The notes: generated from the letters alone by a model not told the origin. 64,000 nt of DNA from Candidatus Bathyarchaeota archaeon (GCA_963707955.1 OY970176.1:1344001-1408000), one strand, 5' to 3'; shown: positions 4,011 through 19,814, numbered from the stretch's first letter. Made by a program: numbers and translations.

Positions 4011-4958
4011 TTGAGAGAAGCTGTTGAAGACTACGCTTTCTCTGAAAAAATGAGTGTTGACGAGCTTGTCTCGCAGATGGAAAAAGCCTGGGGGTTCACA
4101 GCTGGAAAGTTGGCCGTCGGCCTGAGGATCATGGAAAGGATGGTTGAAGACAAGAAATGTGTAAAATTCCTTTCCTTCACTGGAAACCTAGTGGCCACGG
4201 GAACAAGAGGCGCCCTCAAGGAGCTTGTGAAAAGAAAGCTCGTTGATGTTGTCGTCACGACCTGTGGAACCGTTGACCATGACGTGGCGAGGTGCTGGAA
4301 GAACTATTACAGAGGCTCGTTTCTTATGAGTGACGCAAGGCTTCATGGAGAAGAGATAAACCGATTAGGCAACGTTCTCGTCCCAAATGAAAGCTACGGC
4401 ATGATAATCGAAGAAAAGATGCGGCTCCTGCTTCAAAGCTTGTGGCAAAAAGGAATCAAAGAGTGCTCATCGGGCCAACTTTGCCGAGAAATAGGAAAGA
4501 GCATATGCAATGAGAGTTCCATCCTCTACTGGGCCGCAGAGAACAAGATACCCGTCTACGTGCCAGGCATCACAGACGGAGCCGTTGGATACCAAATGTG
4601 GCTTTTCTCACAGGACCATGACTTCAGACTCAACCCTTTAAAAGACTCTGGAGAGTTGAACGAGATTGTTTTTGAAGCGAAGAAAAGTGGCGCTTTGCTT
4701 GTAGGCGGTGGAATATCAAAGCACCACACGTTGTGGTGGAACCAGTTCAAAGGTGGTTTAGACTACGCGGTGTACATCAGCACCGCTGATGAATGGGACG
4801 GCAACCTATCCGGCGCCAGACCGCGAGAGGCAGTGTCGTGGGGAAAAATAAGCGAAAAAGCAAAGAAGACGATGATTGAAGGCGACGCTTCCCTGATTCT
4901 GCCGTTGATGGTGAGTGCACTCATAACAAGAATCGGAAAGGCTAGGAGACGCCGCTGA
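4011..4958 (+). CDS. dys: Deoxyhypusine synthase (canonical archaeal type)
   Basis: SFTGNLVATG, INRLGNV, GGGISKHH, LSGARPREAVSWGK. Confidence 0.9.
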   Translation: MREAVEDYAFSEKMSVDELVSQMEKAWGFTAGKLAVGLRIMERMVEDKKCVKFLSFTGNLVATGTRGALKELVKRKLVDVVVTTCGTVDHDVARCWKNYYRGSFLMSDARLHGEEINRLGNVLVPNESYGMIIEEKMRLLLQSLWQKGIKECSSGQLCREIGKSICNESSILYWAAENKIPVYVPGITDGAVGYQMWLFSQDHDFRLNPLKDSGELNEIVFEAKKSGALLVGGGISKHHTLWWNQFKGGLDYAVYISTADEWDGNLSGARPREAVSWGKISEKAKKTMIEGDASLILPLMVSALITRIGKARRRR

Positions 4959-6003
4959 AGAGCCACGACATGTCTGGGGCTTTCCTCTTCGTCTTAACTC
5001 TCTCGCAAAGCGCATGCGTAATCAGAGGTAAGGCTATCGTCGCATCGCAGTAGCACACTGCCCTCTTTCCGCCCTCGTCGATTTTTCCCCAGCTTATCGC
5101 CTCTTCTAAGGTGCACCCTGACAAGCCGCCCCACTGAGGCGAGTCCGAAGTGATCTGAATCGCGTACTTGTGCGGGTAGTAGTACTCCTTCAGGCCTTTG
5201 CGAAGATGACCCCTCCTTCCTGGCACTCCTTCGTCCAATGTTTTAGGCGAGACAGATATGGCAATGAGCTGCGTGAAGTCTTTCGGCACGCCGCCGCCTA
5301 TGTAGACGACGCCGACTTCCTTGGTTTTCTCTCCTATTCCTACGAACTGGTCGAAATCCTTCACCTGGTCCAGCACGACCGGGTGTCCCGCGTTCTTTGC
5401 CATGATGAATGCTTCCCCGTAAGCACTATCAGTTATTGCTGGACAGAACACCGGAACCTTGTTCTCCGCCGCTGTAGCGGCTATGCTCTTCACTCCTTTC
5501 TTGCTCAAGTATTTGCCGAAAACGTAGAGAAGCTCCGCTGAAGTGTACACATAGTCCTTCTTCAACTTCATGAGGCCCTCAGTCATGAGTAACTCCATCT
5601 CGCGATAGTCCGTTTCTTTCCCGAAAACGTCGTAATACCTGTTCACATCAGCTTTCAGAAGCTCCTCATCATTAACATGTTGAGAACCTTGCCAATAACC
5701 GAAGCCCATGGCATCTACGATGTCCTCTGAGACGTTCGCACCTGTTGAAACAAGAACGTCAATGTAGCGGTTCTCTATCAGCCAGTTGACGATCTTCCAC
5801 TGGCCCGCAGTGCTCATCGAGCCCGCAAAACCCATTATGATCGTGAGCTCTTTTTCTTTCAGCATGGCTTCCCAAACGTCGACAGCTTCTCCAAGCTTTC
5901 TACCCTGATAGGCCGTCTTGCCCATCTCGGCCAGAAGCTGGGAAACACTCTTTTTGCCAACTTCAATGGACTGAACCTTCCTCTTGAAGTAAGATTCCTT
6001 CAT
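4942..6003 (-). CDS. Deoxyhypusine-synthase-like protein (possible homospermidine synthase)
   Basis: VSTGAN, NRYYDV, GGGVPKDF, GGLSGCTLEEAISWGK, CDATIALP. Convergent with dys, 17 bp overlap. Confidence 0.85.
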   Translation of the reverse strand: MKESYFKRKVQSIEVGKKSVSQLLAEMGKTAYQGRKLGEAVDVWEAMLKEKELTIIMGFAGSMSTAGQWKIVNWLIENRYIDVLVSTGANVSEDIVDAMGFGYWQGSQHVNDEELLKADVNRYYDVFGKETDYREMELLMTEGLMKLKKDYVYTSAELLYVFGKYLSKKGVKSIAATAAENKVPVFCPAITDSAYGEAFIMAKNAGHPVVLDQVKDFDQFVGIGEKTKEVGVVYIGGGVPKDFTQLIAISVSPKTLDEGVPGRRGHLRKGLKEYYYPHKYAIQITSDSPQWGGLSGCTLEEAISWGKIDEGGKRAVCYCDATIALPLITHALCERVKTKRKAPDMSWLFSGVS

Positions 6004-9942: not shown

Positions 9943-10859
9943 TCTCTGAGTTTCCTCCCAGTTAGTTTCAAGAAAACGTCCTCGAGGTTAGCGTTCCGAA
10001 CGGTGGCACTCTTCGTTGGAAAATCTTCGAGAAAGCTGGCGAACACTCCATGAGGCTCAGTGGCAAAAACTTGGATCCTGTCACCCACGATTTCCACCCG
10101 AGCCTCTGGAAACTTATTATTGATCGTCGCCACCACTTTGTCATCATAATCGACTTCCATAACTTCTTCTCCAACATGCTTCCTGACCAAGTCTGTCGGA
10201 GTGCCTTCCTCGATGATCTTGCCATTATCCATGATCAGTGTGCGGTCGCACAGTTCAGCCGCCTCATCCATGTAATGCGTCGTCAAGATAATGGTCACGC
10301 CCGATTTCTTCAGGCTTCGAACCTTGTCCCAAATCAAATGACGCGCCTGAGGGTCAAGTCCCGTTGTAGGTTCATCCAACAAGAGTATCTGCGGTTCGTT
10401 GATCAATGCCCTAGCGAGAATTAATCGGCGTTTCATACCAGTCGACAGTTGATCAATAATAACATCGCGCTTTTCTTCCAGTTGAAAGAACTTGAGCATC
10501 TCCTCGGCTCGCTTGCGTGCCTCATCTTTGGAAATGTCAAAGTAGCGGGCGTAGACGGTCAGGTTGGTTATGACGCTGAAGTCTGGGTCGAGGTTTTCTT
10601 CCTGAGGTGAGACGCCTATCATCTTCTTTATGTCTCTGGGGTTTTCAGACACGCTTATGCCCGCCACCGTTAGCTTGCCTGACGCGGGAGGCAAGACACA
10701 GTGAATCATTTTGATGGTTGTTGTCTTTCCCGCACCGTTGGGCCCAAGAAACCCGCAGCACTCACCCTTGTAGACTTGAAAGTTTATGTTGTCCACTGCA
10801 ACGAAATCGTCATACTTCTTTGTCAGGTTCTGCGCTTCGATGAGGACTTCTGAAACCAT
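9939..10859 (-). CDS. ABC transporter ATP-binding protein (NodI/DrrA-like)
   Basis: Walker A GPNGAGKTT, signature LSTGM, Walker B LLLDEPT, TTHYMDEA. Confidence 0.95.
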   Translation of the reverse strand: MVSEVLIEAQNLTKKYDDFVAVDNINFQVYKGECCGFLGPNGAGKTTTIKMIHCVLPPASGKLTVAGISVSENPRDIKKMIGVSPQEENLDPDFSVITNLTVYARYFDISKDEARKRAEEMLKFFQLEEKRDVIIDQLSTGMKRRLILARALINEPQILLLDEPTTGLDPQARHLIWDKVRSLKKSGVTIILTTHYMDEAAELCDRTLIMDNGKIIEEGTPTDLVRKHVGEEVMEVDYDDKVVATINNKFPEARVEIVGDRIQVFATEPHGVFASFLEDFPTKSATVRNANLEDVFLKLTGRKLRE

Positions 10860-11003
10860 GCGGTTCCTTCCAAGAGTCTACCTCATGCATACAGCACGCG
10901 TTCTTAAGAGAATTACTTTTCACTCCTCAAAGTGCCTGAACTCTTCTATCCTCGGCTACATATTTGTCAAGGAGCGCACACGCAGACACTTCATGCAAGG
11001 TTT

Positions 11004-11083
11004 TGGCGGGCCCGCAGGGATTTGAACCCTGGATCTCCGGCTCCGCAGGCCAGCGTCCTAATCCAGACCTAGACCACGGGCCC
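11004..11083 (-). tRNA. tRNA-Arg(GCG)
   Basis: Reverse complement GGGCCCGTGGTCTAGGTCTGGATTAGGACGCTGGCCT-GCG-GAGCCGGAGATCCAGGGTTCAAATCCCTGCGGGCCCGCCA folds as a full cloverleaf with encoded CCA. Confidence 0.97.
11054..11083. repeat. att site, left copy (within the intact tRNA)
   Basis: CGTCCTAATCCAGACCTAGACCACGGGCCC. Confidence 0.9.
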
Positions 11084-11310
11084 ATATGACTGGATTACGG
11101 TGTTCTGACTATTGCCTAGGTAAGATATTAACAACTCTAATAAAACTTAAGAACAGAGGCTTAGCTGAAGGCACACAGTCTGGTTGCTTCTGCTTCTCCT
11201 AGGTATGCTACGGTATTGAAGGTTCTTGCAGAAACAGGGGTTATGCCTCATGAACTGTCCAATGTTTCAATCAGAGATATTGATGTGGAAAGGGGAGTAA
11301 TGAATGTTAG
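11071..11310 (+). pseudogene. Tyrosine integrase remnant (intC part of a split integrase)
   Basis: GKILTTLIKLKNRGLAEGT (core-binding start), then after a deletion and frame change LVASASPRYATVLKVLAETGVMPHELSNVSIRDIDVERGVMNV (box I region). Catalytic HxxR and Y are absent. Confidence 0.75.
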
Positions 11311-11625
11311 CGCGCGCGAGAGCAGAATTGAGGATGCAAATGTAAGAAAAACAGACCACATTAGTCGAAATATGATATTGACCGTGTGGGTCAGAATGTT
11401 TTGTTGCATCTCGCTCGTCTCTCACTCCATCACTATTAGGAGACTCTTAAGTGTTTATTCTAGTAACACTGTATTGTCTCACAAGTCACTGTGCGGACAT
11501 TTATCAATCCTTTTCCAGAAAATCCATCAGGGTCATTTACAGACTACATGACTTTTTCTTTTTAAGCCTTATGAATATCCTTATTAGACCTCAAACAACA
11601 CAAGGCAAACTGGGGGTTCAAAACT

Positions 11626-12261
11626 ATGTCTAGAGACAATTCACATGGAGAATCGGCAACTCCAAGTAAGCATATTATCGTTGAAAATCACGTTGTTGGT
11701 ATTGAGAGTGTTAGTATCAAGACTCGTCATGAAATTTCTGTATTGGCTTATGATTTTGCCAAAAGTTCTGTTGAAGATTGTCGCAGATATCGAGAGTTTT
11801 GTGATAAAGCTAAAGATGTACAAGAAAAAATGGGACATCTTCTCAATGAAATGCAGAGTTCAGTGGCATGCTTTGTCTTTTGCGTAATTTGTCTAGAGGC
11901 ATACATAAACACGTATGCTGGTGATAGGCTTTCTGAATTAATATGGGAAAAACTTGAACTAAGATTACGCCTTGAGGACAAGTGGATAGTAGTTCCAGAA
12001 CTCGCTCTCAGAAAAACATTTGAAACTGACAAGGAACCTTATAAATCATTAAAATGGTTGGTTGACCAGAGGAATTTTATAGTCCATTACAAAGGCAAAT
12101 TCAGTGAACCTGAAATGAATGACCGACTAGGGACCGCTACTGACAGAATTTTTAATCAATTTACATTGGAGAAAGCAGAAAGAGCATTTCAGCTTGTAAA
12201 AGACATGATTAAGAGCGTGCACAGTTTCGATGACTCGAAGGCTCCCGATTGGTTAGCCTAG
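11626..12261 (+). CDS. HEPN-domain protein (putative RNase/toxin)
   Basis: All-helical, LEAYIN acidic helix plus RNFIVH (Rx4H) motif. Confidence 0.65.
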   Translation: MSRDNSHGESATPSKHIIVENHVVGIESVSIKTRHEISVLAYDFAKSSVEDCRRYREFCDKAKDVQEKMGHLLNEMQSSVACFVFCVICLEAYINTYAGDRLSELIWEKLELRLRLEDKWIVVPELALRKTFETDKEPYKSLKWLVDQRNFIVHYKGKFSEPEMNDRLGTATDRIFNQFTLEKAERAFQLVKDMIKSVHSFDDSKAPDWLA

Positions 12262-12341
12262 CCTAAGCCATGCAGTACAGAAGTCTTAAATCAGGACAGT
12301 AGGTTGACGAAACACACGGTAGAAAAGTAGAAATCCTATCG

Positions 12342-12809
12342 ATGCATACAGCAGGTCACGGTAGTGTTGGCATGTCTCGTGATGTTATATATGCAAAATA
12401 CCAAAGAATAGTGATGAGTGGTTTCGGTTACGCTTGTCCGTTTTGTTACGAACGAGATAAACTGGTTTATGATATGGGCACCCCAAGTTACCTGACCTGC
12501 ACGGCATGTGGAGCACGATGGAATCTTCACTGGTTTTTCGGCAAATTGACAGGGGCGGTATTGGTACAGGACAGTATGAAGGGAATAGGAGCACATTTGC
12601 TCCATAAGAATTATCCAACAGATTTCTGGCGAAAGATGGGTCTTGAAGGTCGCAAGGACTTGCCTCCGCCTTCCACTGAAATGACGGCAGCCAAGGAAAA
12701 AGAGATAATAACACAAACAAAAGTCATCGTGAAGGTCAAATGTCCTTATTGTACCAATCTATATGACGAGACGCTCGACAGATGTCCGCACTGTGGTGGA
12801 AAAAGGTAA
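12342..12809 (+). CDS. Zinc-ribbon protein
   Basis: CPFC/CTAC pair and C-terminal CPYC...CPHCGG. Confidence 0.7.
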   Translation: MHTAGHGSVGMSRDVIYAKYQRIVMSGFGYACPFCYERDKLVYDMGTPSYLTCTACGARWNLHWFFGKLTGAVLVQDSMKGIGAHLLHKNYPTDFWRKMGLEGRKDLPPPSTEMTAAKEKEIITQTKVIVKVKCPYCTNLYDETLDRCPHCGGKR

Positions 12810-12939
12810 CAGTCGAATAAGGTAAATCAACTTGCGACAGACTCTAGTCAAGCTGAAAGAGGAATAATAGAAAAATTAAATCGGCACAGCAACAGAAGAC
12901 GAACTGGGCACATGCATAGAATCAGAAAGAGAATCTTGA

Positions 12940-14109
12940 ATGAACCATAACTATGATGATGAGGAAAAGAATACTGAACCAGATGAAGAAGATTCAGAAG
13001 AACCAAGACCTGTTGATGCTGAAGTTGATAGAAGAAAACGTGTTGAAATGCTCCTCAAAGAGGAAGAAGAAATAGACAAAGGTCAACCATTCAGAACAAA
13101 AGAAAGGAAGCACAATAATGGAATGACCAGTGAAGGAGAATTTCATTTTAAAAAAGCAGAAGAATGGAAAGAGATACATAGGAAAAGAATGAAATGGAAA
13201 TGGGTTCTCGCAACTATTTTGATCTTGGCAACAATCATACTCGGTCTATTCGTCTTCTACTCGTATCCTAATCTCTTTTCGAATATAATTCCAAACCAGT
13301 CTACAACAAATTATACTCATGGAGAACTTGTAGACTATGCTTTGACTCTAATCAATTTGGACAGATCATCAAGAGGCTTATCAAATGTGAGCCTAAGTCC
13401 AATAGATTCGGGTCAAGTTCACGCTGATGATATGTTTAATCATGGGTTCTTTAGCCATTGGGGAACTGATGGGTCTAAACCTTACATGCGGTATACATGG
13501 GCAGGAGGAAAAGGGGCTGTCGAAGAGAACGTTGCAGCATATTTGCAGGGTAGTCCTTCAGATCTGAAGACAGCTCTGAAAGATTTGGAATTCAATATGA
13601 TGTTTAATGATTCGGCTTCGAACTGGGGACACAGGGATAACATTTTGAATTCATTTCATAACGAGGTAAGCATTGGCGTTTCTCACGGCAATAGCCAACT
13701 GTATTTCGTTGAGGATTTCATAGATGACTACATTAACTGGTCAACCTTCACATTCACTCAAAATCAAGTTACATTAATCGGAAGTCTAACCAAACAAGTG
13801 TCTCTGAGTCAAGTCAATATATTCTATGATAGTCTGCCATCTAACTTGACGGCGGGTCAGTTGGATAATTCTCCCCACATTGGTTCATATACGCAAGGAA
13901 CTTTCACTGGAATGGCTCTTCCCCCAAACTATCAATCTCAACAAGGCATAACTATAACAGCCCAAACTTGGGTGCAATCAGTCCTAACATTCCAGATAGA
14001 ATTCGATTTGTCTCAAGTGTTCAATACGTACGGAAAAGGTGTCTATACTTTATATCTTCAAACCACCAGTCAAGATTCTCTTACATCATATTCTATCTGG
14101 CATGAATGA
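12940..14109 (+). CDS. Membrane-anchored CAP (SCP/Tpx-1/Ag5) domain protein
   Basis: Acidic N-terminus, one TM helix, LINLDR, HADDM...FFSH, EENVA, GHRDNIL. Confidence 0.85.
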   Translation: MNHNYDDEEKNTEPDEEDSEEPRPVDAEVDRRKRVEMLLKEEEEIDKGQPFRTKERKHNNGMTSEGEFHFKKAEEWKEIHRKRMKWKWVLATILILATIILGLFVFYSYPNLFSNIIPNQSTTNYTHGELVDYALTLINLDRSSRGLSNVSLSPIDSGQVHADDMFNHGFFSHWGTDGSKPYMRYTWAGGKGAVEENVAAYLQGSPSDLKTALKDLEFNMMFNDSASNWGHRDNILNSFHNEVSIGVSHGNSQLYFVEDFIDDYINWSTFTFTQNQVTLIGSLTKQVSLSQVNIFYDSLPSNLTAGQLDNSPHIGSYTQGTFTGMALPPNYQSQQGITITAQTWVQSVLTFQIEFDLSQVFNTYGKGVYTLYLQTTSQDSLTSYSIWHE

Positions 14110-14119
14110 CCGTAATGGA

Positions 14120-14148
14120 GATTTCAGAGGGTCCATAGAAGTTTTTCA
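14120..14148 (+). repeat. Island cassette repeat, copy 1
   Basis: GATTTCAGAGGGTCCATAGAAGTTTTTCA, 10 nt after the CAP gene stop. Confidence 0.9.
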
Positions 14149-14423
14149 ATTTTAATTTAAAGGAAACAAGGTCTCTTCTTCATTCTTAGTGTTTATCAGA
14201 ACAAATCTAAGATTCGTTCTCATAGGGAAGATGTTCTGTTTGTGACGACTGTTTGCTCATAGAACTTTGTTTCAAAAGACAAATAGCCTGAGAAGAGTAA
14301 AGATCCATACACATTCTAGGGGAAAAGGAAAGGTGGTACAACGGTAAAAAAGAAGGATTTGGTTCAATGTTTATATTTTTGGTTTTGCATATATTTCATT
14401 GTAAGAATTACAGAAGATAGTGA

Positions 14424-15662
14424 ATGATGAAAAGTTATGCTGTTTGTGCTTTCTTACTGTTTTCAATGTTAGCTCTGCTTATACCGCTAAACATAGTCAA
14501 AGTAGATGCTGGCCTCGAATCAGGTTTGACGTTAGACTCTGGAAGTTATCCAGCAAGTATGGTCTACGATAACAATACCAATTCAGTATGGATAGCTTTG
14601 CATTATGGATATCCTCCATGGAATTCTTCGATAGCAAACATTGACGTTGCAAGCAAATCCGTTATAGGAATATATCAGCTTCCATATTCTTTGGATTCTG
14701 GTACATGGGGACCTTTTGCAGAATATATAACAATGGATTCTAACGGAAATGTTTGGGTAGCACCTTCTGATTATTTGCACTGGATTATACCTGAAGTCTA
14801 TGTTTTTATGTTCAATGTATCATCTCAAAATTGGACAACAGTTTTGGTTGATAACACTTCTTTGTTTGGAATTGGAGACATAGCCTATACAAATGGATAC
14901 ATATGGGTTCTTGGCTACACAAATATATACAGAGTAAATTTCAACAATAACAATTCTGTGTTAAAGATACCATCACCATCAGGAATAACATTGTTAGACG
15001 GAAGTTTATGTGAAGACGGAACAAATCTTTGGATTAGCACTTCTAATAGTGGCTCTCTTTTAATGCTAAATACAACAGATAACTCTGTTAAAACAGTTCT
15101 AAACGGACTTAATAATCCAAGAGGTATGTGTGTTGACAACACTTTTCTGTACATTGCCGAACAAGGACAAAATGTTGGTGGCAGTGGCAATTTTTCTGGA
15201 AATACTATTACTGTTATGAACAAGATAGACTATGGTGTAACAACTATAACTTGTGAGAACTGTACAGGAGTACAAAATGTTGCAATAGATGAAAATGGTA
15301 GCTTATGGTGGACAGATACTTCGCCAAACGGAGAAGTTATGACACATGTCGGAGTTTTTAATGTTACATACACACTTTATGAATATGCATATTATGTGAT
15401 CTATGTTCCTAACCCTGGTGTTTGGGTTTCGTACACTGGTAGTGCTGGTATAAAATTCTACAACTTCAGTGGATTTATCCAAGGTGACGTGAACAAAGAC
15501 GGAAGAGTGAGCATGACTGACGTTGTTGATGTCTTGGGAGCATTTGGTGCAGTAAATGGAACTTCTAGATACAATCCAACCTATGACTTCGACAACAATA
15601 GCAGAATAGATATGTCAGACATAATGGTTGTTTTAAGACACTTTGGACAAGTATCAACGTAG
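14424..15662 (+). CDS. Secreted beta-propeller (Vgb/NHL-like) protein with C-terminal dockerin-like domain
   Basis: Signal peptide; MDSNGNVWV, GLNNPRGMCVD and IDENGSLWW blades; GDVNKDGRVSMTD...DFDNNSRIDMSD paired EF-hand dockerin. Confidence 0.8.
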   Translation: MMKSYAVCAFLLFSMLALLIPLNIVKVDAGLESGLTLDSGSYPASMVYDNNTNSVWIALHYGYPPWNSSIANIDVASKSVIGIYQLPYSLDSGTWGPFAEYITMDSNGNVWVAPSDYLHWIIPEVYVFMFNVSSQNWTTVLVDNTSLFGIGDIAYTNGYIWVLGYTNIYRVNFNNNNSVLKIPSPSGITLLDGSLCEDGTNLWISTSNSGSLLMLNTTDNSVKTVLNGLNNPRGMCVDNTFLYIAEQGQNVGGSGNFSGNTITVMNKIDYGVTTITCENCTGVQNVAIDENGSLWWTDTSPNGEVMTHVGVFNVTYTLYEYAYYVIYVPNPGVWVSYTGSAGIKFYNFSGFIQGDVNKDGRVSMTDVVDVLGAFGAVNGTSRYNPTYDFDNNSRIDMSDIMVVLRHFGQVST

Positions 15663-15819
15663 TGAAAAACATCCAAAAATTCTCTTCTTTTTGTTGTTCT
15701 ATTTTTGCTCATAGGGCTAGTTCTTCAAGGAATAGCAGAGTTTGTAAGCTAAAGTTAGAGGAATATGATAAGGGTCTAGTTCTTTCACCAAGTTTAGGCT
15801 TTTCCCATCAATGAATGCA

Positions 15820-15857
15820 GATTTCAGAGGGTTCATAGAAGTTTTTCATCGAAGTTC
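15820..15857 (+). repeat. Island cassette repeat, copy 2
   Basis: GATTTCAGAGGGTTCATAGAAGTTTTTCATCGAAGTTC. Confidence 0.9.
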
Positions 15858-15994
15858 TTATGTTCACAGAAGATATTCAGTCAGCCAATCAGTACCTTTG
15901 AGCTTCTTGGAACATTTCTGCTTTCTAAAATGAAAAAGGATACATGCATAAGCTATAAGAACAACAGAAAAGGCAGTAATTTAGGGAGACGGAG

Positions 15995-17020
15995 ATGGCT
16001 AGAGGGTATCTTTTTTCTATAGCTCTGATTTGTGTGCTAGTTTTGTTATCTCCTTGTCTTTTGAAGAAAGCTTATGCTACTGACGGTTTTCCAGTACACA
16101 ATATCAGCACAGACTTGAACTATGCAACAATACAATCAGCAATCAATGCTATCCAGACAGTAGATGGAAATACGATTAGAGTTGATGCTGGAACCTATAA
16201 CGAGACATTGACAATTGATAAGGGCGTTTCCGTAATTGGAGACAGCCCCAGTACTACAACAATCAATGGGCAGGTCACTATAATTTCTTCAGGAGTAGAA
16301 ATCTTCAATTTCACCTTGAATGGTGGAATTAAAATATTCTCTTCTTACTATGCAACTTCACGCTGCACTGTTTCTAATAACACAATAGTTGGAGTTCCAA
16401 ACATAGGGGATGGATACGGGATTCATGTCTACACCAATGAAGCTGGATTTGCAGATTATGGCATTATTGAAAACAATGAGATAAGAGATTTTAACTATAC
16501 TGGCATATCGATTTATCGTGTTAGTGGTTGGACAATTTCAGGAAATGACATACACGACAATCTAAGAGGCGGTATATATCTTGGAGATGGAGAATCGTGT
16601 AATATCATTGGAAACTCAATCCATAATGACAATTCAATTTATCCATATACCTTCTTTGCATTAGAACTTGAATATTCAAGCAATAATGTGATATATTATA
16701 ACGATTTTTTTGATAATGGCAAGTTTTCTCAAGTATATGTATCAAATGGCTATTCCAACAAATGGGATAGCGGAAGTCAAGGCAATTATTGGGATGATTA
16801 TAAAGGAGTAGATAGTGGTAATGGGATTGGAAGCACTCCGTATTTAATTGACTCTTATAACCAAGATAATTTTCCACTCATGCACACGTACAACATTCCA
16901 GAGTTCCCATCATTCATTGTCCTAACAATATCCATGTTAGTAACACTACTAGCAGTCATAGTCTACTTGAAACTCATCAAGCAAAGATTTCAAGGACTCC
17001 ATAGAAGTTTTTCATCGTAG
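15995..17020 (+). CDS. Secreted NosD/CASH parallel beta-helix surface protein with PEF-type sorting tail
   Basis: YATIQSAIN, GI-x-L...NN-I repeats, GNYWDDY...DNFPL, then IPEFPS, a TM helix and a basic tail. Confidence 0.85.
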   Translation: MARGYLFSIALICVLVLLSPCLLKKAYATDGFPVHNISTDLNYATIQSAINAIQTVDGNTIRVDAGTYNETLTIDKGVSVIGDSPSTTTINGQVTIISSGVEIFNFTLNGGIKIFSSYYATSRCTVSNNTIVGVPNIGDGYGIHVYTNEAGFADYGIIENNEIRDFNYTGISIYRVSGWTISGNDIHDNLRGGIYLGDGESCNIIGNSIHNDNSIYPYTFFALELEYSSNNVIYYNDFFDNGKFSQVYVSNGYSNKWDSGSQGNYWDDYKGVDSGNGIGSTPYLIDSYNQDNFPLMHTYNIPEFPSFIVLTISMLVTLLAVIVYLKLIKQRFQGLHRSFSS

Positions 17021-17023
17021 TTC
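16986..17023 (+). repeat. Island cassette repeat, copy 3 (contains the stop codon of the beta-helix gene)
   Basis: GATTTCAAGGACTCCATAGAAGTTTTTCATCGTAGTTC. Confidence 0.85.
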
Positions 17024-17127
17024 TGTCTGTTATTAACATATACAGCTATTATTGAGCTTCTTTTCTATCCAATATTCTCTTCATGATGTAGTCTTTAATA
17101 CTAATTCTACTAGATTTGATTTCTTGA

Positions 17128-17616
17128 GTGACTCAGATGTTGGACATACCGTCTATTTCAGCAATTGTTGTAGCCACAGGCGTACTGGTTGGTGTTGTTT
17201 ATTATATTCTGGATATGAGAAATCAGAGCAAAGTGAGACAAACAGACCTTGTAATGAGACTATACTCAACTTTCAATAGTCTTGAATTCCAGAAGACATG
17301 GGAAGAGGTTTTGAAAAGAGAAGCCAAGAACCTCAATGATTACGAGAAAAAGTATAGTCAGGCTGAGGTATTAGCAATTGGCATGTTCTTCGAAGGAATC
17401 GGCATTCTTCTAAAAAGAAAACTCATAGACATAGAGTTAGTTGATGACATGTTCACTATGCCTATCAAAACAACATGGGAAAAGATGAGGGATATTACAT
17501 TAGAAGCCAGAAAAGTCAGAAATGAACCAACGGGTCTTGAGTGGTTCGAATATCTCTACGATGAAATGAAGAAGAGAGAACAGAAGCTCCGACAAGGAAG
17601 TTTCAAGAATGGTTGA
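17128..17616 (+). CDS. DUF4760-like membrane-anchored protein
   Basis: N-terminal TM helix, FFEGIGILLKRKLID, WFEYLYDEMKKR. Confidence 0.7.
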   Translation: MTQMLDIPSISAIVVATGVLVGVVYYILDMRNQSKVRQTDLVMRLYSTFNSLEFQKTWEEVLKREAKNLNDYEKKYSQAEVLAIGMFFEGIGILLKRKLIDIELVDDMFTMPIKTTWEKMRDITLEARKVRNEPTGLEWFEYLYDEMKKREQKLRQGSFKNG

Positions 17617-18062
17617 CATAACAGAGATTTCGGCTATTGTTGCAGCAGCAGGTGTGTTAGTAGGTGTTATCCTTACTGTGCTAGAGCTTAGACATCTAGC
17701 CAGATCAAGACGAACAGACTCCTATTGGAGGATTATGTCCAGCTTCAACAGCAAAGAATACTTGGAAGCATTACAGAAAGTGCTTAGTCTGGAATTCGAG
17801 GACTACGATGACTTCACAAGAAAATATGGTAACTTGCTTTCAGGAAAATGAAGTTGGCGTACCATTCGCCATGGTTTGCGATCTGTATGAAACAACAGGC
17901 TTTCTTCTTCATAATGGACTACTGGAATATGACATAGCCAGCCAATTCCCAGTCATCCAAACATGGGAGAGAGTGAAGCCGATAGTAGAAGGATTAAGAA
18001 AGGAATCCACCAAATCGTATTACAAGTGGTTTGAATACCTATACAATGAGATGAAGAAATGA
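17609..18062 (+). CDS. Second DUF4760-like paralog, frameshifted near 17843
   Basis: ORFs 17609-17851 and 17808-18062 together align with the upstream paralog (ISAIVAAAGVLVGV ... WFEYLYNEMKK). Confidence 0.7.
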
Positions 18063-18085
18063 GAGCAAACACAGATTCAGCCAAG

Positions 18086-18124
18086 GATTTCAGAGGGTCT
18101 GTAGAAGTTTTTCAGCGAAGTTTC
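18086..18124 (+). repeat. Island cassette repeat, copy 4
   Basis: GATTTCAGAGGGTCTGTAGAAGTTTTTCAGCGAAGTTTC, 23 nt after the last cargo stop. Confidence 0.9.
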
Positions 18125-18211
18125 GAGATTTCAAGCTTAGAGTGATCAATCACAAACCATTTAAGATTCTTCAAAGTAGTATAGAAGTGCAAAATGGGGA
18201 GATAAAGAAGA

Positions 18212-18293
18212 ATGGACAATGAAAACAATCCTTTTGAACAGAAAGCAATCAATAATAAGTCTGACGTCCTAATCCAGCCTAGACCACGGGCCC
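18212..18293 (+). pseudogene. Putative intN fragment of the split integrase
   Basis: MDNENNPFEQKAINNKSDVLIQPRPRA reads through the right att. On circularisation it joins in frame to HMTGLRCSDYCLGKILTTLIKLKNRG at the left end. TATA-like ATTTAAG near 18159. Confidence 0.6.
18265..18293. repeat. att site, right copy (orphan tRNA 5' fragment)
   Basis: CGTCCTAATCCAGCCTAGACCACGGGCCC, identical to the left copy except for one missing A. Confidence 0.9.
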
Positions 18294-18743
18294 TTTTGGA
18301 CGGACTAGGGTACTATTGCGCTCTCTGAAAAGTTTGTACTCGTCTGTCTCCGTCACAAAGTCGAAGTCGGACTCTATTAGTTTTTTTGCTTCTGCGATCA
18401 AGAATCGCAAAGAGAATGTGGTTTTATTGTCCCAGATTCATATCAAAAATACATATGGAAAAGGTCGCAGCTAGCAAAGCGGTGAATACCATAAGCAGGG
18501 CCCGTTTATTGAGATGGCAGCACGTGACTGGAAGCCGACTATCGATGAAGCTTTAGAAAGGGAAAACCGAGCTATCAGGTTTCACAAAACGCGTTACGTA
18601 CTTTGAACACTGAGGATACTGTAGACTGTGATGGCATTGTGTTCAGAAGAGAATTGATTGTCACGCACTTGCCGCGCAATTTGCCTGCTTTCCGAGGAGC
18701 TCACAGATTAAATAGTTCTAGAGTCATTTTAGAATCTGGTGTT

Positions 18744-19814
18744 TTGTTGGATTCAAGAATTCAGCATCTCGTCGAGGTTAGCAAGCAGGTGATCTCGGAT
18801 TGTGCATTGGAAAACGGGGCTATCGTCGCGGCGAATGGGTTCAAGGAATACTTTCCGAAAGAAGCTAAAGATTACATGTACGTGTGGCCCAGAGACGCAT
18901 CGTTTGCATGTGTGAGCGCGGATATTCTGCAGATGGAGAAGATACAGGAGCGTTTCTTTGACTGGTGTATCCACCGGGCAGAAGGCTTCATGGAAGGGGG
19001 CTGTCTCTGTCAGAACTATTCTGTTAACGGTCCTAAAGCCTCAGCGAATTTTCAGCCCGACCAAACTGGTTCTCTCTTGTGGGCGATTTGGCACCACTTT
19101 AAGGGAAAACCGAAAAGAGCCTTGAAATACGAGATGCTTGTCAAACAGGCAGCTAATGGCCTGTGCAATAAGTGGAAAGAAAATCACTTCGATGATACTA
19201 CAAACGACTTGTGGGAGGAGAGGTTCACCTTCCCCGATTTAGAGGATAATTTCACTTATTCACTTGCTGCATGCATCAAAGGCTTGAGGTGCGCAAACGA
19301 AATCGTTCCGAACAAGAAGTGGATGACCACTGCGGACAGCATGTTTCAAAGACTGAAAGAACACTACAGAAACTTCTTTATTAGAAGCTATGGAAGACTG
19401 AGCGATGAAAGAATCGACGCCTCAGCGCTTGGGCTCGTGTTTCCGTTTGACATTTTTCGGGCAGATGATCCGCGGATACTTGCCACAGTCGAACAAATTG
19501 AAAAGAAGCTGGTTCTTCGCGGCGGAATACACAGGTACGAAAGCGATGAATACGACGGGTGGATGTGCGGAGGCCTGCATCGAAGGAAAGGCGCAGGCGC
19601 TTGGCCGATCCTCAACTTCTGGATGAGCATATACTACGCGAAACTTGGCAACGGCGAAAAGGCTCTTCAATACTACAACTGGCCGCTTGAAAGAACTCGA
19701 GAATTTCTTCCTGAACAAATATTCGAGAACGATCTTCAAGTTTCAGTGAGACCGTTATGCTGGAGCCACGCGATGTTCATCATCGCTTCAAAAGAACTCG
19801 GTTACATACAGTGA
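18744..19814 (+). CDS. GH15 glucoamylase-like glycoside hydrolase
   Basis: YMYVWPRD, QPDQTG, DLWEE, IDASAL, GIHRYESDEY, LPEQ, PLCWSHA. TTG start chosen from the TATA-like TTAAAT near 18709. Confidence 0.85.
   Translation: MLDSRIQHLVEVSKQVISDCALENGAIVAANGFKEYFPKEAKDYMYVWPRDASFACVSADILQMEKIQERFFDWCIHRAEGFMEGGCLCQNYSVNGPKASANFQPDQTGSLLWAIWHHFKGKPKRALKYEMLVKQAANGLCNKWKENHFDDTTNDLWEERFTFPDLEDNFTYSLAACIKGLRCANEIVPNKKWMTTADSMFQRLKEHYRNFFIRSYGRLSDERIDASALGLVFPFDIFRADDPRILATVEQIEKKLVLRGGIHRYESDEYDGWMCGGLHRRKGAGAWPILNFWMSIYYAKLGNGEKALQYYNWPLERTREFLPEQIFENDLQVSVRPLCWSHAMFIIASKELGYIQ

Follow-up and report, generated by a model that had tools for sequence, protein, structure and literature searches.

The stretch of DNA analysed here, hereafter the window, comprises 64,000 nt of a genome of Candidatus Bathyarchaeota archaeon (GCA_963707955.1, OY970176.1:1344001-1408000; 2.35 Mb on one contig), and it holds an island of low GC content, 7,211 bp long and inserted at tRNA-Arg(GCG), in which four copies of a short oriented repeat accompany a row of cargo genes (Table 1). 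The GC fraction is 0.34-0.45 inside the island against ~0.50 in its flanks. Reading away from the tRNA gene, the island contains a remnant of a tyrosine recombinase gene, two smaller open reading frames (ORFs), a CAP-like gene, a propeller-dockerin gene, a beta-helix gene and a pair of DUF4760 genes, and it closes with a partial copy of the tRNA. All island ORFs of at least 150 amino acids (aa) lie on the + strand, and TATA-like boxes of the window genes are found at 12871-12881, 14370-14379, 15947-15959 and 17093-17105. An earlier note on this DNA had described the cargo as CAP, propeller-dockerin, beta-helix and a DUF4760 pair, co-oriented and mostly with TATA-like boxes of their own; Pfam backs these labels, with the CAP match a weak one (21.0 bits, just below the cut-off of 21.1), and the co-orientation and the boxes, at four places, were borne out. 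As set out below, it is well supported that the repeat is a conserved boundary element of gene modules in small integrative elements of Bathyarchaeia.

Table 1. Features of the island, in window coordinates
Feature	Position	Strand	Evidence or relation
tRNA-Arg(GCG), integration target	11004..11083	-	ARAGORN; Rfam tRNA 56.3 bits
attL, tRNA-Arg 5′ part	~11053-11083	-	empty-site joint 11053->18265
Tyrosine-recombinase remnant, start of catalytic domain, 44 aa	11177..11308	+	50% identity to G002 ORF
Cargo ORF, 211 aa, without family match	11626..12261	+	Pfam and defence-family scans
Cargo ORF, 155 aa, Lar-like zinc ribbon	12342..12809	+	PF14354, 9.1e-08
Motif A, second conserved intergenic motif (...CTCTAGTCAAGCTGAAAGAGGAATATGAGAAA...)	12839..12873	+	blastn and nhmmer
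CAP-like secreted or membrane protein	12940..14109	+	PF00188, E 6.6e-4
Repeat copy 1 (core)	14120..14148	+	starts 10 nt past stop of ORF 12940-14109
Propeller plus dockerin protein	14424..15662	+	Dockerin_1 2.2e-06, Reg_prop 2.6e-05 (propeller/NHL repeats)
Repeat copy 2 (core plus TCGAAGTTC)	15820..15857	+	starts 157 nt past stop of ORF 14424-15662
Beta-helix/NosD-like protein, stop codon inside repeat 3	15995..17020	+	Beta_helix 1e-14
Repeat copy 3	16986..17023	+	overlaps 3′ end of ORF 15995-17020
DUF4760 protein	17128..17616	+	PF15956, 8.8e-11
Second DUF4760 gene, split into ORFs 17609-17851 and 17808-18062	17609..18062	+	Pfam, ORF scan
Repeat copy 4	18086..18124	+	starts 23 nt past stop of ORF 17808-18062
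attR, 31-nt copy of tRNA-Arg 5′ part	18265..18295	-	direct-repeat family D3; joint 11053->18265

Matching to the consensus recovered three of the window copies, at 14120-14148, 15820-15848 and 18086-18114, with 0, 0 and 2 mismatches (100 shuffles gave 0 matches), and a search for direct repeats placed a fourth, more divergent copy, at 16986-17014, with these three in one family of 46 nt. These are the four same-orientation copies that had been reported before; all are on the + strand, spaced by 1700, 1166 and 1100 nt. The placement at or after the 3′ ends of cargo genes holds broadly, with offsets of 10, 157 and 23 nt and with copy 3 overlapping its gene end, where the repeat does supply the stop codon of the gene as claimed: TAG 17018-17020 sits in the TCGTAG extension of the repeat. 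The surroundings of the copies differ. Copy 2 is preceded by ~90 nt of a longer unit that includes a degenerate motif A, the 3′ end of copy 3 is joined at a TTCT microhomology to a GNAT-DUF4760 intergenic region from which the GNAT gene is gone, and copy 4 is followed by a remnant of a GNAT upstream region.

The repeat has a core of the form GATTTCA-N10-TAGAAGTTTTTCA, mostly extended by TCGTAGTTCT, and a 35-copy consensus of (CAAA)GATTTCAGGGACTCCCTAGAAGTTTTTCATCGTAGTTC. Variability is lowest in TAGAAGTTTTTCA, followed by GATTTCA, and highest in the centre. The core contains a T-tract, at repeat positions 24-29, with a run of five T residues (T5) kept in 28 of the 35 copies. One frame reads DFRxS(L/I/V)EVFHRS, and an ATG precedes it by 1-6 codons in a few copies; a coding micro-ORF DFRxSLEVFHRS was rejected, as starts are few, many copies have an in-frame stop 0-6 codons upstream, and the entropies by codon position (0.57, 0.61 and 0.73) show no three-base periodicity. 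In 5-6 places the repeat belongs to a longer unit of ~140 nt, made up of motif A, a linker and the repeat, for which a consensus RNA structure is absent (-0.73 kcal/mol). Motif A lies 40-45 nt upstream of a repeat copy in four other places, and in the window it brackets, together with repeat copy 1, the CAP promoter and gene. Motif A is also found away from repeats in the same genome, and it occurs at positions 85020, 576506, 2078190-2079905 and 2138198 of genome contig C1, 16-58 nt after stop codons. A diverged repeat copy after a DUF4760 gene in another genome (L084, G004:C10, ~4930-4995) keeps GATTCCA...CAGAA...CATCGTAGT.

The inverse core sites of integron attC elements have the motifs RYYYAAC (R″) and GTTRRRY (R′), by the definitions of the earlier note and of general knowledge, and the 35-copy consensus CAAAGATTTCAGGGACTCCCTAGAAGTTTTTCATCGTAGTTC contains neither. 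A stem can be drawn that joins GAUUUC to GAAGUU and AGGG to CCCU and that pairs in 87.4% of cells; 281 of 500 shuffles paired at least as well, slid controls paired in 40-65% of cells, and no covariation was detected in this stem, its pairing being equal to the shuffled mean. DNA folds of 131 nt on both strands of all four window copies gave z-scores of -0.98 to +1.06, with no attC-like hairpin. Because the consensus motifs are absent, the folds weak and covariation nil, the repeat is devoid of attC motifs and of an attC fold, and a stable or covarying hairpin was rejected on the folding z-scores and the shuffles. A known RNA family was likewise rejected as the identity of the repeat, given that an Rfam scan of 10500-19000 at E up to 1 returned only the tRNA and two sub-threshold chance matches. 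The copies are 1,100-1,700 nt apart, outside the spacing of clustered regularly interspaced short palindromic repeats (CRISPR), whose repeats of 23-50 nt alternate with spacers of comparable size, and no CRISPR-like array turned up when the genome was scanned by k-mers, which picked out coding repeats only, so that a CRISPR link was dropped. On these points our results agree with the earlier note, which had described the repeat as neither attC nor CRISPR.

The island itself is a single integrated unit. Its attR is 96.8% identical to the tRNA of a genome of the same genus (G010), in which both flanks are present at 91% identity, the tRNA is followed directly by a GH15 gene, and the island is absent. 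A metagenome contig from one sequencing run (X4) joins 11053 to 18265, skipping 7,211 nt with 13 nt common across the joint and with single-nucleotide differences of a strain, and in the likely source run the depth across the island is flat (35.1 against 35.3-35.6 in the flanks). Because of the empty sites and the flat depth, we conclude that the island as a whole is an integrated element, fixed in this strain and missing from relatives. Four DNA runs belonging to one study were compared with the window, as contigs only; in these, which are blind to rare circles, we saw only the absence of the whole island and no convincing cassette joint. Of the circles or deletions that the earlier note had proposed to look for in reads, these contigs gave the whole-island joint alone. 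Several candidate joints were set aside: 12866->14114, a possible deletion of the CAP cassette, has a short side of 25 nt and a depth of 4.7 and reads as motif A followed by a repeat in another island; 17199->17543 and 17589->16984 are cross-mapping of a paralogous locus (locus A, below); and 17586->16985 (X4) is the DUF4760-repeat junction of another strain. The tRNA-Arg of the window carries an extra base in the D-arm region at 11067 (80 nt against 79 nt in G010), absent from contigs of runs X1 (depth 35.1 of 38.9) and X3, which may be an assembly error. ARAGORN reported only 26 tRNA genes in this genome, so that many others probably contain introns or were missed by the program in some other way.

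The integrase remnant that was said to head the array is real, although just 44 residues long. It adjoins attL, reads away from the tRNA, and shares 22 of its 44 residues (E 2e-15) with positions 169-212 of an ORF of 360 aa in another genome of the genus (G002, L101:994-2076); this ORF, a match to Pfam Phage_integrase PF00589 at 9.4e-16, passes through a tRNA-Gly gene in antisense. A Pfam scan of the window did not detect the remnant, its sole PDB match at E up to 10 was XerA (5hxy, E 0.19), and tblastn gave no match to the PF16795-type integrases of relatives; the frame 11062-11199, which runs out of the tRNA, matched nothing when checked as part of an integrase. The island thus retains of its integrase only this fragment of the catalytic domain, and it is well supported that the window holds a decayed member of the element family described below.

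Seven copies of the repeat occur in the genome, at three tRNA-linked loci; nhmmer found all of them at E <=1.2e-9, with the next match at E 0.008. The previous statement that no copy lies outside the island is therefore correct for the window and incorrect for the genome, which has three more copies at two other loci. Locus A (C1 2136352-2142674) is a second low-GC island, at tRNA-Val(GAC), with two copies and with paralogues of the CAP and DUF4760 genes; its CAP homologue has an N-terminal zinc finger, dockerin proteins are encoded on the opposite strand, and it contains a repeat-GNAT-DUF4760-GNAT-repeat block. The third locus (C1 1301582-1301830) has a solitary copy 132 nt from tRNA-Val(UAC). 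Because two other Bathyarchaeia metagenome-assembled genomes (MAGs; L059 and L063) carry islands with 2-3 copies at the same tRNA-Val(UAC), this gene looks like a recurrent integration site of which only a scar is left here. The PF16795 profile had no match in the genome, and all nine PF00589 matches lie at 0.16-0.85 Mb, a long way from the repeat copies (1.30, 1.36 and 2.14 Mb); we therefore regard the three repeat loci as decayed islands.

Among 61 related genomes, seven have the repeat, all of one family: the genome of the window, 5 of 10 others of its genus, and G027, which belongs to another genus and has at least 11 copies (reversed-pattern controls gave 0). An exact scan of a collection of genome contigs returned 34 stretches, 17 of them in Bathyarchaeia or Bathyarchaeota MAGs, several holding two or more copies; the remaining 17 were single matches in unrelated bacteria, about the chance level for 19 fixed bases by our own arithmetic. 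A search for a viral origin gave 0 matches in viral contigs. As the earlier note had anticipated, the repeat is found across related genomes in tRNA-inserted, integrase-linked islands, at the 3′ ends of genes and with variable cargo and gene order. Because it is confined to islands, co-oriented at gene 3′ ends and associated with modules of variable content and order, the distribution is the reverse of what that note had named as its refutation, namely copies spread genome-wide in both orientations, unlinked to integrases or variable cargo, or with invariant order.

In relatives the repeat forms co-oriented arrays of 2-8 copies in low-GC stretches that often end beside split integrase genes of the Sulfolobus spindle-shaped virus (SSV) type, and a tRNA gene (Asn, Ala, Thr, Val, Pro or Leu) is present in 9 of 13 such regions, with a later region at tRNA-Gly. 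All-against-all BLAST of the ORFs neighbouring the repeats yielded recurrent families: DUF4760 (24 ORFs), a GNAT acetyltransferase (12 ORFs; Acetyltransf_3, 3.5e-23), an integrase (8 ORFs; PF16795 'Archaeal phage integrase', 6.4e-14), an AsnC-type helix-turn-helix (HTH) protein (5 ORFs; 2.1e-10), a methyltransferase and a second GNAT. The minimal element (L035, G001:C15, 7506-11064) spans 3.5 kb at tRNA-Asn in the order Int(N), GNAT, DUF4760, repeat, AsnC-HTH, repeat and convergent Int(C). Its integrase gene (PF16795, 6.4e-14) is split into two parts that each contain translated tRNA sequence: Int(N), which overlaps tRNA-Asn, ends there in ...PPIGLEPMTDWLTA, and Int(C), which lies at the opposite island end, begins with MAPPTGLEPMTDWLTA. 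This matches the SSV-type 'suicidal' arrangement, in which the attachment (att) site lies within the integrase ORF, as described in the parts of the sources consulted (PMC7253208; PMC8371274). The L035 element lacks a replication gene and could serve as a reference for the family. Larger islands gain modules; one of 10.5 kb at tRNA-Gly, for instance, has seven repeats. At tRNA-Val(GAC) the genome of the window and G007 differ in the cargo ahead of a common repeat-GNAT-DUF4760-repeat block. Taken together, this is a family of small elements, 3.5-10 kb in size and low in GC, inserted into tRNA genes by tyrosine integrases that have the att site inside their own gene.

The copies are always co-oriented with the genes, and their placement relative to genes and module edges can be compared with expectation. 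Of 55 copies, 29 start between -45 and +30 nt from the stop of a co-oriented ORF of at least 60 aa, against 12.5% for random positions in the same arrays. The internal TAG of the repeat ends five ORFs of four families, the window beta-helix gene ending at the second TAG. Where an island is intact, its final copy separates the last cargo gene from the 3′ end of the convergent integrase gene. In blastn comparisons between islands, many alignments stop 0-3 nt from a repeat edge. Nine homologous repeat-spacer-GNAT modules, compared in pairs, have a mean identity of 0.34 over the 60 nt upstream, 0.77 for the repeat core, 0.62 for the spacer and 0.66 for the gene; from these identities, homology begins at the 5′ edge of the repeat, and the core is kept better than the GNAT gene. 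A repeat-ORF-repeat unit with a 296-aa ORF occurs in two arrays of one genome, with 81% identity over 1,043 nt and different neighbours, and truncated copies are joined to foreign sequence after repeat positions ~10, 12, 19 and 23.

What the repeat does at these boundaries is a further question. We put at about one in two the probability that it works as a sequence-specific stop or insulator of transcription and doubles as a linker for module exchange, a reading drawn from sequence comparison. The repeat would act on the transcript or during transcription. Oligo-T tracts are termination signals in archaea, and the one in the most conserved part of the repeat would be such a signal for archaeal RNA polymerase, while the conserved bases flanking it suggest recognition by an additional factor. 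The T5 tracts lie on the sense strand 30-55 nt after stops, where an oligo-T terminator is expected in sequence, and in the genome of the window the 60 nt that follow stops hold T5 tracts at ~4-5 times the density of coding sequence, a bias that A5 tracts do not have. (In the same genome, only 200 of 1,166 long ORFs have a T5 tract within 80 nt of the stop.) Recombination among copies, in tandem or co-resident elements, would exchange, delete and accrete modules, since all modules have the same 40 nt at their ends. It might be homologous or be aided by an integrase of relaxed specificity, and its outcome would be cassette-like arrays that need no cassette integrase of their own. Homologous recombination between tandem-integrated archaeal elements is an established model of module exchange, and one archaeal integrase is known to recombine identical segments down to 104 bp in length, according to the portions of PMC8371274 that we consulted.

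A number of observations weigh against a stop or insulator that also links modules. About eight copies have no co-oriented gene upstream and head a module, typically 78-88 nt before a GNAT gene. The T5 tract is missing from 7 of the 35 copies, and in the diverged G004 copy (L084) ACCCTCC replaces the T-tract, with a T7 run 10 nt later. RNA folding of the window copies gave -3.8 to -5.4 kcal/mol with z-scores of 0.03 to 0.8 and no stable hairpin, and a scan for bacterial-type terminators called two sites with no repeat copy among them, on which ground we discarded an intrinsic terminator of that type. A bare oligo-T terminator would, moreover, not need the conserved GATTTCA and TAGAAG. The window dockerin gene has T-rich tracts of its own right after its stop, 157 nt before copy 2, and GNAT-DUF4760 modules exist without a repeat, among them the one that has the diverged G004 copy. 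Finally, mosaic breakpoints also fall at repeat-free gene boundaries, as where a GNAT gene is 93% identical and its flanks are unrelated, so the repeat is not the sole module joint.

The earlier note had read the array as an integron-like system with the repeat as a recombination site for capturing or shuffling genes. In that scheme a tyrosine recombinase, element-encoded or acting in trans, would excise modules as circles and insert them at other copies; we consider it unlikely, and as unlikely its specific form, in which the repeat is a hairpin-free double-stranded site of ~40 nt in an archaeal cassette system run by a 'suicidal' or relaxed-specificity trans recombinase. The arrays certainly have the outward form: 2-8 co-oriented copies <4 kb apart, each closing a module, a content and order that differ between genomes at the same tRNA, repeat-gene-repeat cassettes in different contexts, ORFs that run into the repeat as they do into attC, a strict link to integrase-bearing islands, and half-copies that could be hybrid sites. 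With at least two copies per cluster, co-oriented with short ORFs, they also agree with the cluster definition used for integrons (two or more sites <4 kb apart, co-oriented with short ORFs, in the part of PMC9668308 consulted). Against capture, the site has no inverted binding arms, no single-strand hairpin and no covariation; its centre, expected to be identical as the crossover region, is the most variable part; and the truncated copies break at several points and not at a single one. The islands carry two integrase families, PF16795 and PF00589, both of which act at tRNA att sites, the genome of the window has its PF00589 matches far from the copies and lacks PF16795, and the contigs gave no convincing cassette joint. 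What stands of the earlier proposal is that the repeat delimits modules of variable content and order; what lacks support is the dedicated integron-like site, since the mobile unit observed is the whole 7.2-kb island at its tRNA att site and, besides the missing hairpin and covariation, the two integrase families, the distance of intact integrases, the scattered breaks and the repeat-free seams all speak otherwise.

Nor is an operator of the stoperator kind, for which mycobacteriophages provide the precedent (PMC9283540, consulted in part), any more probable than capture. By this analogy an element-encoded protein would bind the asymmetric site and block one-way elongation or insulate modules, and the AsnC-type HTH protein encoded between the two copies of the minimal 3.5-kb element (L035:9474-9980) would be the candidate binder. 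The asymmetry of the site, its orientation with transcription at or over stop codons, its several copies per element and a conservation beyond what a T-tract would need are all in its favour, as are TTTCA-like half-sites about two helical turns apart (our own reading) and the AsnC-HTH gene that has repeat copies on either side in L035, L031, L040 and L081. The window island and locus A, however, encode no such regulator, and because the HTH paralogous family is present in 43 of 61 genomes, against 7 of 61 for the repeat, co-occurrence of the two is not specific and tells us nothing. A promoter or 5′ control element of the next module, with AGAAG plus TTTTTCAT as BRE (the transcription factor B recognition element) and TATA box and a second motif ~25 nt downstream as start site, is somewhat less probable still. 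It would explain the copies that head a module, the constant 78-88 nt spacing to GNAT starts in nine modules and a semi-conserved TGTGCATAGAG motif ~20 nt downstream. Yet the GNAT genes keep a promoter-like box ~43 nt before their start, with or without the repeat, the window genes have TATA-like boxes of their own, TTTTTCA is a poor TATA box by what is known of archaeal promoters, and at least seven terminal copies face a convergent integrase gene or an att site, with nothing to drive. We give least credence to a selfish miniature repeat, of the miniature inverted-repeat transposable element (MITE) or repetitive extragenic palindromic (REP) type, or to an inert relic of a small gene, self-transposed or inherited, to which the longer ~140-nt unit and the protein-like frame with its few nearby upstream ATGs might point. 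The seven genomic copies all lie in three islands, co-oriented within each locus, and neither inverted copies nor terminal inverted repeats were found; the ~140-nt unit lacks a consensus structure, most copies have no start codon, upstream in-frame stops and the lack of codon periodicity count against a gene, and the repeat core is more conserved than the coding sequence that flanks it.

Returning to a transcription stop and linker for modules, the repeat resembles several known systems in part. As in integron arrays, tandem co-oriented genes are each closely trailed by a conserved site, some ORFs end in it, a tyrosine recombinase is linked, and content varies between relatives. In contrast to integrons, the site here measures 29-45 nt, has no RYYYAAC/GTTRRRY ends and no folded single strand, the modules are often multi-gene with their own promoters, and the integrases are tRNA-targeting 'suicidal' types whose 3′ end, not an attI, abuts the array. 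IntI or attI was not encountered beside the arrays, where the integrases are PF16795 or PF00589 members overlapping tRNA genes, a comparison that included no IntI-specific domain profile. The archaeal integrons described so far have canonical attC and IntI (PMC9668308), and the main text of that paper, which is the part covered here, contains 0 occurrences of 'Bathyarchae'. With SSV-type elements the islands share insertion at a tRNA and duplication of part of that tRNA, relatives in which the site is empty, an integrase gene whose Int(N) and Int(C) parts stand on either side of the island (in intact relatives), copies that have decayed and become immobile, and modular evolution. Unlike them, the Bathyarchaeial elements are very small, the minimal one of 3.5 kb consisting of integrase, GNAT, DUF4760 and AsnC-HTH, and they have a conserved oriented boundary repeat, for which we found no description in such elements in the literature searched.

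Mycobacteriophage stoperators, as far as the source consulted goes, are likewise short asymmetric motifs, many per mobile genome, in short gaps or at stop codons and in one orientation; they differ in length (13 nt against 29-45 nt), and the repeat has an oligo-T tract, an archaeal host and a putative binder only. Archaeal oligo-T terminators have the same sense-strand placement and genome-wide enrichment after stops, whereas ordinary ones are not sequence-conserved between unrelated genes or genera and at least 20 flanking bases are conserved here. In lambdoid phages, conserved intergenic boundary sequences coincide with mosaic joints, as the repeat does here. The literature searched, as far as it was accessible, contained no description of the repeat or of these small elements, an absence that is not proof.

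Among the cargo of the window island, the CAP gene has a paralogue in the locus A island, and the second DUF4760 gene, split into two overlapping ORFs of 80 and 84 aa, is probably a frameshifted pseudogene, in keeping with a decaying island. The beta-helix protein terminates (16890-17020) in ...PEFPSFIVLTISMLVTLLAVIVYLK..., an end that, in our reading, resembles a sorting signal of the PEF-CTERM archaeosortase type. The suggestion that defence genes had been captured found no backing: a PADLOC scan of 10 proteins matched no defence-system family, the AsnC-type regulator giving weak, HTH-only matches to CasR/Csa3.

Bathyarchaeia are abundant and uncultured, and their mobile elements have barely been described. 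The analysis defines a family of very small tRNA-integrating elements with a core of integrase, GNAT, DUF4760 and an AsnC-type regulator, in which the starts and ends of modules are marked by a conserved, oriented boundary element. With the repeat as a simple tag, such islands and their cargo, including dockerin, beta-helix and CAP surface proteins, can be located in metagenomes. Were it a true recombination site after all, it would amount to a second, independent invention of cassette capture, and the islands would be functional analogues of integrons with a different chemistry of site recognition. The repeat also offers a testable handle on archaeal transcription punctuation and a concrete case for how mosaic archaeal elements swap modules.

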